Source: a virus
Strand: one strand, 5' to 3'
IMG/VR virus record: IMGVR_UViG_3300047157_000105
Span: 76,544-140,543 of that record
Length of the DNA stretch: 64,000 nt
Below the pieces are notes generated by a model, which was not told where the DNA came from, made no database searches, and worked only from the letters and a program-made list of their open reading frames with translations. Both the position numbers and the translations under genes were made by a program. The stretch's first letter is position 1; each line of letters opens with the position of its first letter. Shown here in pieces: positions 7,200 to 7,455 of this stretch.

Positions 7200-7455
7200 G
7201 ACGTAAAGGTAAAAGTAGGAGCACTTAACACGCGGGTTCAAATCCCGCCTCCTCCACCAAATAGATCTAAAATAGATTTATTTAATGGGGGAGATTCGGC
7301 ATCGATTAGGTAGCAGAGCCGCTTGAGACTCGTCAGTCAACGAAGACTTTAAAATGAAAAATTAATCGGCAATCAGTCAGATTATTTACTAGCCGCCTAA
7401 TGGCTAGTTGAGGTTTTCTTCCGGAGTTCCTTATCACCCAATACTCCGGATCTTC
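7200..7455 (+). ncRNA. ssrA: Circularly permuted (two-piece) tmRNA
   Basis: Acceptor piece with T-arm GCGGG-TTCAAAT-CCCGC and CTCCTCC-A-CCA ending at 7259; spacer hairpin 7260-7286; coding piece from GGGGGAG at 7287, giving a G3.U70 pair; tag frame 7368-7400 GNQSDYLLAA*. Outer ends are approximate. Confidence 0.93.

Follow-up and report, generated by a model that had tools for sequence, protein, structure and literature searches.

We analyzed a 64-kb window (the whole stretch of DNA considered here) that forms the last part of the 140.5-kb IMG/VR virus record IMGVR_UViG_3300047157_000105 (140,543 bp; completeness estimated by CheckV at 78%) and found that it carries, within an nrdA-iscA-nrdB cluster, a gene for a circularly permuted transfer-messenger RNA (tmRNA). 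Specifically, ARAGORN called a permuted tmRNA at 7167–7491 with the tag GNQSDYLLAA*, the same tag as in an earlier sequence-only reading of this DNA, which had proposed a phage-encoded two-piece tmRNA here. A scan of the window with Rfam models at their gathering thresholds returned a single match, to the family tmRNA_permuted (RF04321), at 7199–7400; the score was 68.5 bits (threshold 47 bits; E = 4.6e-11 for the 64-kb window), with model positions 1–213 all covered. ARAGORN reported no RNA gene other than this tmRNA, either in the window or elsewhere in the record; with no transfer RNA (tRNA) genes among its calls over the 140,543 bp, the tmRNA is the only tRNA-like gene.

With regard to subtype, the best match within the clan was beta_tmRNA (RF01850), which aligned over its full length at 61.8 bits (E = 3.5e-18) but fell below its gathering threshold of 84 bits. 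In comparison, alpha_tmRNA (RF01849) reached 31.4 bits (threshold 50) through a local match confined to the tRNA-like part (model positions 90–166), and cyano_tmRNA (RF01851, threshold 70 bits) gave no match at E <= 10. The gene is a member of the RF04321 permuted-tmRNA family and is beta-like, not an RF01850 member by curated score.

All of the sequence elements described in that reading were found where it had placed them. The RNA is made up of the following parts:

7199–7259 (+): acceptor piece, the tRNA-like 3′ part, 61 nt, delimited by the RF04321 alignment
7200–7203, 7211–7215 and 7221–7228 (+): 5′ strands of the long-range helices, within the acceptor piece
7232–7248 (+): T arm, with GCGGG (7232–7236), loop TTCAAAT and CCCGC (7244–7248)
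7249–7255 (+): acceptor 3′ strand CTCCTCC, followed by the discriminator A7256 and CCA at 7257–7259
7260–7286 (+): intervening segment (spacer), 27 nt, presumably removed in maturation
7287–7455 (+): coding piece, ~170 nt, from the alignments to RF04321 and RF01850
7287–7293 (+): acceptor 5′ strand GGGGGAG, with G1 at 7287, after the CCA end at 7259 (the swapped order)
7294–7305 (+): analogue of the D loop, in the coding piece
7306–7314, 7322–7326 and 7331–7334 (+): 3′ strands of the long-range helices, in the coding piece
7335–7348 (+): 4-bp hairpin at the position of pseudoknot 1 (PK1)
7368–7400 (+): tag reading frame, with resume codon GGC and tag GNQSDYLLAA, ending GCC GCC TAA
7388–7394 / 7402–7408 (+): stop hairpin, 7 bp, with the end of the tag frame inside and the stop codon in the loop
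7409–7462 (+): 3′ domain, with stems S1 and S2 and a T-rich run

The acceptor stem comprises 7 bp, in which G7289·U7253 is the G3·U70 pair, accompanied by the discriminator A7256. Pairing between the pieces includes that of 7221–7228 with 7306–7314, and the spacer forms a hairpin of 11 bp that stacks on the acceptor stem. In the 3′ domain, S1 (7409–7413 / 7429–7433) and S2 (7421–7427 / 7443–7449) are interleaved in an arrangement compatible with a pseudoknot; as modeled, S1 would form an H-type pseudoknot with S2. The GC-rich stem S2 and the T-rich run probably act as a terminator; an intrinsic-terminator scan flagged no site, S2 being missed because its 15-nt loop is beyond the limit of the scan.

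Covariation and the tag reading frame

Using the IscA protein as an anchor, we found 21 related loci in IMG/VR (75–94% identity). A homologous tmRNA lies directly 5′ of iscA in 19 of them. The remaining two contigs (L027 and L028) have no tmRNA, so that the gene is common in the clade and not universal. RF04321 was passed by all 11 relatives scanned (59–86 bits), and beta_tmRNA was the best clan match in each of the 12 clade members tested; RF01850 scores in the relatives ranged from 45.5 to 88.9 bits, with only L032 (88.9) exceeding 84. ARAGORN called just 7 of the 19 relatives' tmRNAs, missing those with longer spacers or with the T loop UGCAACU. This loop replaces UUCAAAU/UUCAAUU in L020, L021, L022, L023, L025 and L030 and puts a G where the universal pseudouridine 55 would stand; ARAGORN misses these copies, but the three of them that were scanned all pass RF04321 (L020, 64.5 bits; L021, 79.1 bits; L023, 83.4 bits). 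The acceptor piece of five other relatives (L015–L019) ends in ACCT instead of ACCA, which fits post-transcriptional CCA repair, in that a CCA-adding enzyme would have to supply the terminal A.

Pairing was counted for a structure of 52 pairs, written by hand, on an alignment of 15 sequences, and 96.2% of the alignment cells can pair. Changes on both sides were seen in 11 of the 52 pairs, compared with 4.6 ± 1.3 in shuffled alignments (none of 500 reached 11) and at most two when the partners were slid. These pairs lie in the T arm (three of five), in the helices 7221–28/7306–14 and 7213–15/7322–24 (two each), in the hairpin 7335–38/7345–48 (one) and in the stop hairpin 7388–7408 (three of seven, with 97% of its cells paired), so that compensatory changes occur in two of the three helices joining the pieces. 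The acceptor stem is invariant, and G3·U70 is constant in 15/15 sequences. RNAalifold independently recovered the same helices, including the stop hairpin.

The spacer behaves differently from the helices around it. Its length in the relatives ranges from 27 to 134 nt, and its sequence is unrelated between subclades, with a hairpin always kept on the acceptor stem and with five pairs for which RNAalifold reported compensatory changes; such behavior is what would be expected of a discarded segment. The longest spacer, in L035, holds an open reading frame (ORF) of 50 codons with two CxxC pairs (zinc-ribbon-like; L035:2678–2837), which begins 8 nt past the CCA and crosses G1 into the coding piece. 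Its homologue, an ORF of 51 codons, lies directly 5′ of iscA in L027 (2874–3029), one of the contigs without a tmRNA. It seems that a mobile mini-gene can be accommodated in the excised spacer.

Across 20 copies of the tag, the last five residues read Y-(L/A)-L-A-A, and they are kept through synonymous changes (TAT/TAC, TTA/TTG/CTG, CTA/TTA and GCC/GCT/GCG/GCA). The only 3-nt indel within the tag preserves the frame, and all three stop codons (TAA, TGA and TAG) are used. The upstream part of the tag differs between clade members, as GNQSD, GKND or GNDSV. This pattern of substitution indicates that the tag frame is under selection at the protein level. RNAalifold also predicted a 5-bp hairpin, UAAUC/GAUUA, at 7363–7384, with the resume codon in its loop; three relatives have the compensatory version UAAAC/GUUUA, a change that turns the Asp of the tag into Val. 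A structured resume codon would be unusual for a tmRNA.

By two detectors, by conservation and by covariation, the gene is far beyond chance. The covariance model, ARAGORN, the covariation and the conserved tag frame all agree on the phage-encoded, circularly permuted tmRNA that the sequence-only reading had put forward.

Neighboring genes and transcription

The surroundings of the tmRNA contain the following features:

4311–6617: nrdA, upstream, with two small ORFs intervening before the tmRNA
6687–6715 (+): promoter-like site TGTACA-N17-TATAAT with extended TG, from a motif scan
6755–6898 (+): small hydrophobic ORF of 47 aa in the interval from nrdA to the tmRNA, seen by direct reading of the sequence and given as context
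6937–7164 (+): small ORF of 75 aa with a hydrophobic N-terminal part, immediately 5′ of the tmRNA and given as context
7165–7198 (+): conserved leader, from the stop codon of the preceding ORF to the first helix of the tmRNA, with a small hairpin TTCATT / AATGAA
7474–7785 (+): gene for an IscA-like iron-sulfur cluster protein (PF01521, E = 1.7e-15), directly downstream of the tmRNA

The placement of the tmRNA between nrdA and iscA, as first described, is right on the iscA side; on the other side, the immediate neighbor is a small ORF, two of which separate the tmRNA from nrdA. The 75-aa ORF matched no Pfam family, and its C-terminal coding sequence is kept in the relatives. A motif resembling a late promoter, TATAAATA, lies at ~6745–6752, directly upstream of the 47-aa ORF. 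The non-coding leader contains a block, ATAACATTCATTCAA..TGAAGTG, that is nearly invariant among the relatives, and 7165–7198 aligns with the part of RF01850 modeled as an unstructured leader at the 5′ end. The possible roles include those of a processing site, a promoter element and a 5′ end structure.

The motif TGTAC-N17-19-TATAAT occurs six times in the window (0.34 expected), always on the (+) strand and between 4.2 and 17.5 kb. Its copies, at 4261, 6687, 7788, 10422, 16185 and 17438, mostly with an extended TG, precede nrdA, the tmRNA unit, the nrdB operon, rnh, gp33/59 and gp32, so that each copy stands before genes of replication or nucleotide metabolism. In 11 of the 21 related contigs, an exact copy of the motif was found 5′ of iscA, at a distance of 734–1065 nt. 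The site at 6687–6715 likely starts the transcription unit that holds the tmRNA.

Sequences of this locus were also present in metatranscriptomes, where six runs hold 41–65% of the sampled words, in assembled contigs that show no ends, strand or level. Contigs from RNA libraries cover 6828–7226 at higher depth and contain very little of the coding piece, and these libraries may include DNA. Contigs that run from the 75-aa ORF into the tmRNA (to ~7226) offer a weak hint of co-transcription. In three of the runs, contigs match from 6828 onward and carry a different sequence upstream, and those libraries appear to contain a related strain in which the genes upstream of the small ORF are arranged differently.

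Proposed function and alternatives

We put a probability of about 0.82 on the reading that the gene is a working ssrA in circularly permuted form, carried by an uncultured T4-like myovirus of marine origin with kinship to the phage Melnitz and to the pelagimyophages, and that it gives extra ribosome-rescue capacity. Covariation and conservation in the alignment support the fold of such an RNA, its alanine identity elements and its tag frame. Transcription would proceed from the promoter at 6687–6715, together with the early/middle genes of replication and nucleotide metabolism and with the two small ORFs, and would end, at least partly, at the stem 7421–7449 and its T-run. As in the two-piece tmRNA of Caulobacter, the precursor would then fold with the spacer hairpin stacked on the acceptor stem; host RNase P would cut at G7287, 3′ trimming and CCA repair would produce the end at 7259, and the 27-nt spacer would be released. 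Covariation shows the 61-nt acceptor piece and the ~170-nt coding piece to be held together by the 7-bp acceptor stem and three long-range helices. The invariant G3·U70 pair and the discriminator A would let the host alanyl-tRNA synthetase (AlaRS) load alanine, and host SmpB and EF-Tu would carry the RNA to ribosomes stalled on broken mRNAs. Resumption at GGC 7368 would add (A)GNQSDYLLAA, a step for which selection on the frame is seen and activity is presumed, and the ...LAA end of the tag would serve as a ClpXP-type degron.

No genes for SmpB, ClpP or RF-1/ArfB-type factors were found in the 140.5-kb record, and the RNA would therefore depend on host factors. The lack of smpB that had been noted for the window thus extends to the whole of the 78%-complete record. 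The likely benefit to the phage is extra ribosome rescue while host and phage nucleases truncate mRNAs; a counter to host mRNA-cleaving defenses, as the sequence-only reading suggested, is possible but finds no support in the present analysis.

Several observations weigh against this reading or limit it. The RF01850 score stays under the curated cutoff, which restricts the subtype to "beta-like". No second stem of PK1 is evident, with a 4-bp hairpin as the only structure at that position, and stems S1 and S2, although paired in all cells of the alignment, show only one-sided changes from A-U to G-U, which leaves the pseudoknot unproven. A rival extension of the stop hairpin, pairing 7385–86 with 7410–11, also co-varies (UA in nine sequences and CG in six), a switch that may reflect a single evolutionary event. 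The metatranscriptome contigs are uninformative on RNA ends, and one of them (X15, 7203–7313) spans the spacer, as precursor RNA or contaminating DNA possibly would. A gene for SmpB could lie in the missing part of the record. Finally, the benefit to the phage is something that we infer, and the processing, alanylation and tagging of the phage RNA are carried over from the Caulobacter model.

Other roles for the same gene have to be weighed against ribosome rescue. The RNA could be a decoy that mainly soaks up host SmpB or AlaRS and thereby damps host trans-translation, an idea that gains from the lack of SmpB in the record, which obliges the phage to use the host pool, and from the molecule of phage DS6A, consisting of the tRNA-like domain (TLD) only, the like of which strongly inhibits tmRNA, perhaps via titration of SmpB (PMC4131195). 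However, a decoy needs no tag, and purifying selection acts in this clade on the tag frame as well as on the resume context and the stop hairpin; we consider this role quite improbable. Alternatively, a working tmRNA might be valued for its different tag, (A)GNQSDYLLAA or ...YALAA, if this shifts the choice of adaptor or protease. The tag does vary upstream (GNQSD, GKND and GNDSV) of a fixed C-terminal degron, and the recycling of host proteins into amino acids for the phage has been proposed for Melnitz (PMC9004378). Still, YALAA/YLLAA is an ordinary proteobacterial degron, nothing indicates a new fate for the tagged proteins, and no phage gene for a protease or adaptor was found in the record, which makes such retargeting improbable.

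That the gene is a passenger or relic with no role in infection, picked up by chance from a host or left at an attachment site, seems very improbable. Temperate phages commonly carry pieces of ssrA as remnants of integration sites, the blastn matches to P2-like and other prophages span the T arm and acceptor only, and L027 and L028 lack the gene, all of which would suit a relic. Nonetheless, the gene is full-length and is conserved in 19 contigs in which IscA differs by up to 25%, and it shows both compensatory and synonymous changes; the covariation largely refutes this explanation. Moreover, this is a T4-like virus, and the cultured phages nearest to it are lytic myophages with no reported integrase (PMC9004378).

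Origin and comparison with known tmRNAs

The structural genes of the virus are T4-like, and its baseplate protein gp6 is closest to those of Melnitz, HTVC008M and Mosig (39–41% identity). Melnitz is a Methylophilales phage that infects OM43, and HTVC008M and Mosig are Pelagibacter phages that infect SAR11 (PMC9004378). We found a permuted tmRNA in all three genomes (~141–147 kb), with a tag ending in ...ALAA. These tmRNAs pass alpha_tmRNA (67.6–106.7 bits, threshold 50), unlike the one described here (31.4 bits, local only), and they share a locus with the order PD-(D/E)XK nuclease, small ORFs, tmRNA, gp33 and gp59, in contrast to the nrdA-iscA-nrdB setting of ours. The present genome has matching nuclease, gp33, gp59 and gp32 genes, with no tmRNA among them. 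Because a different subtype lies at a different locus, the comparison suggests that the tmRNA of this clade was captured independently of the alpha-type gene beside gp33 in the cultured relatives. Melnitz further differs in having four tRNAs (PMC9004378), compared with none in this record, and a glutamine riboswitch, which the Rfam scans did not detect in the window.

Two features bear on the host and the donor. The C-terminal 135 residues of a fiber protein (46547–48217) are 72% identical to proteins of Pelagibacter podophages (EXVC019P group, HTVC168P), and this fiber tip gives a hint of a SAR11 host; the subtype of the tmRNA gives a hint of a betaproteobacterial donor. The sequence-only reading had remarked that a host with a one-piece tmRNA would be of special interest; by analogy, such a host is unlikely because the hosts of the relatives are SAR11, an alphaproteobacterium for which a two-piece tmRNA is expected, and OM43. 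In a published tmRNA tree, OM43 is placed on the Beta/Gammaproteobacteria branch (PMC9004378). Among these marine T4-like viruses, the tmRNA subtype for the most part matches the lineage of the host, with Melnitz as the published exception. We tentatively propose, with the odds somewhat against it, that this pelagimyophage/Melnitz-like clade gained a betaproteobacterial-type tmRNA independently of the alpha-type of its relatives and that the subtype records a past or present betaproteobacterial host, e.g., OM43. If so, all three permuted tmRNA lineages would be phage-borne in allied marine T4-like viruses (Kyanoviridae and relatives), the virus, whose fiber tip is like that of SAR11 podophages, would be the mirror image of Melnitz, which infects OM43 with an alpha-type tmRNA, and a tmRNA could work with SmpB from another bacterial class.

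Searches for close homologues and for a donor gave little. The exact pattern of T arm, acceptor, spacer and GGGGGAG had no match in IMG/VR beyond the source record, and blastn against 50,697 phage records matched only ~35 nt, spanning T arm and acceptor, within remnants of one-piece ssrA genes in P2-like and other phages, with no homologue of the whole gene. In bacterial genomes, the pattern CCTCCTCCACC-N6-36-GGGGGAGA gave 120 chance matches, most of them in unrelated and largely GC-rich genomes, and none contained a tmRNA by ARAGORN or blastn; this pattern is too loose for a donor search. No beta-type tmRNA scored over threshold in 151 genomes from the order of a genome labeled Comamonas, a result that is uninformative on the host.

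The rarity that the sequence-only reading implied does not hold. Buchholz et al. 2022 (PMC9004378, text and Table S1) reported 53 two-piece tmRNAs in phage isolates, 50 of them from marine or aquatic phages; Melnitz, HTVC008M and Mosig, the cultured phages closest to this virus, are in the set. Examples come from phages of Caulobacter, Synechococcus, Roseobacter and Pelagibacter, and 17 of 47 Melnitz-like contigs have permuted tmRNAs (PMC9004378). A 2025 tmRNA database holds 79 phage sequences. In our own scans, permuted tmRNAs were present in three cyanomyophages as well as in Melnitz, Mosig and HTVC008M. Two-piece tmRNAs of phages are already known, and the new points are modest: a subtype that is beta-like, a locus other than that of the cultured relatives and evidence of repeated capture. 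The finding leaves existing knowledge of tmRNA itself unchanged; what it adds to the two-piece tmRNAs known from phages is a well-supported clade with at least 19 environmental contigs. Marine T4-like phages would thus seem to have taken up ssrA repeatedly, with different bacterial lineages as donors and different loci as destinations. Such repetition argues that extra ribosome-rescue capacity is worth having when infecting streamlined marine bacteria. The tmRNA subtype may also mark the host history of uncultured viruses, and the freely varying spacer, which bears a gene in one relative, points to an excised segment that tolerates insertions.

Among phage-borne tmRNAs, those of the cyanomyophages S-CAM1, S-SSM7 and S-CRM01 (Kyanoviridae) are permuted as well, and these phages belong to the same family as the closest cultured relatives of this virus. 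They pass cyano_tmRNA (74–128 bits), a model without a match in this genome, and have tags of 19–31 residues; two of the three lie among tRNA genes, of which this genome has none. The one-piece ssrA genes of mycobacteriophages (Bxz1 group) and the TLD-only ssrA of DS6A are likewise carried with no phage smpB listed alongside, but they keep the standard, unpermuted order, and that of DS6A is without a tag frame (PMC4131195).

The cellular tmRNA of Caulobacter crescentus, which is of the alpha type, is established by experiment, whereas the phage RNA is known here from its sequence. Keiler, Shapiro and Williams reportedly described in 2000 how cleavage of the Caulobacter crescentus precursor yields an acceptor piece and a coding piece, which pair with each other and are active in tagging. 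The two-piece tmRNA of betaproteobacteria is said to have been recognized by Sharkady and Williams in 2004 as the third permuted lineage. The published beta set is narrow (~100 sequences after filtering at 88% identity; PMC11915505), and the clade described here lies well outside it. In comparison with the betaproteobacterial tmRNA, ours is a viral gene, AT-rich, with Gly (GGC) rather than Ala as the resume codon. Yet the two share the order of elements, the long-range helices, a hairpin ahead of the tag, a stop codon within a hairpin and a similar 3′ loop, the loop CCUUAUCACCCAAU of the 3′ stem in the phage RNA resembling the RF01850 consensus CCUUGuuACcaAA.

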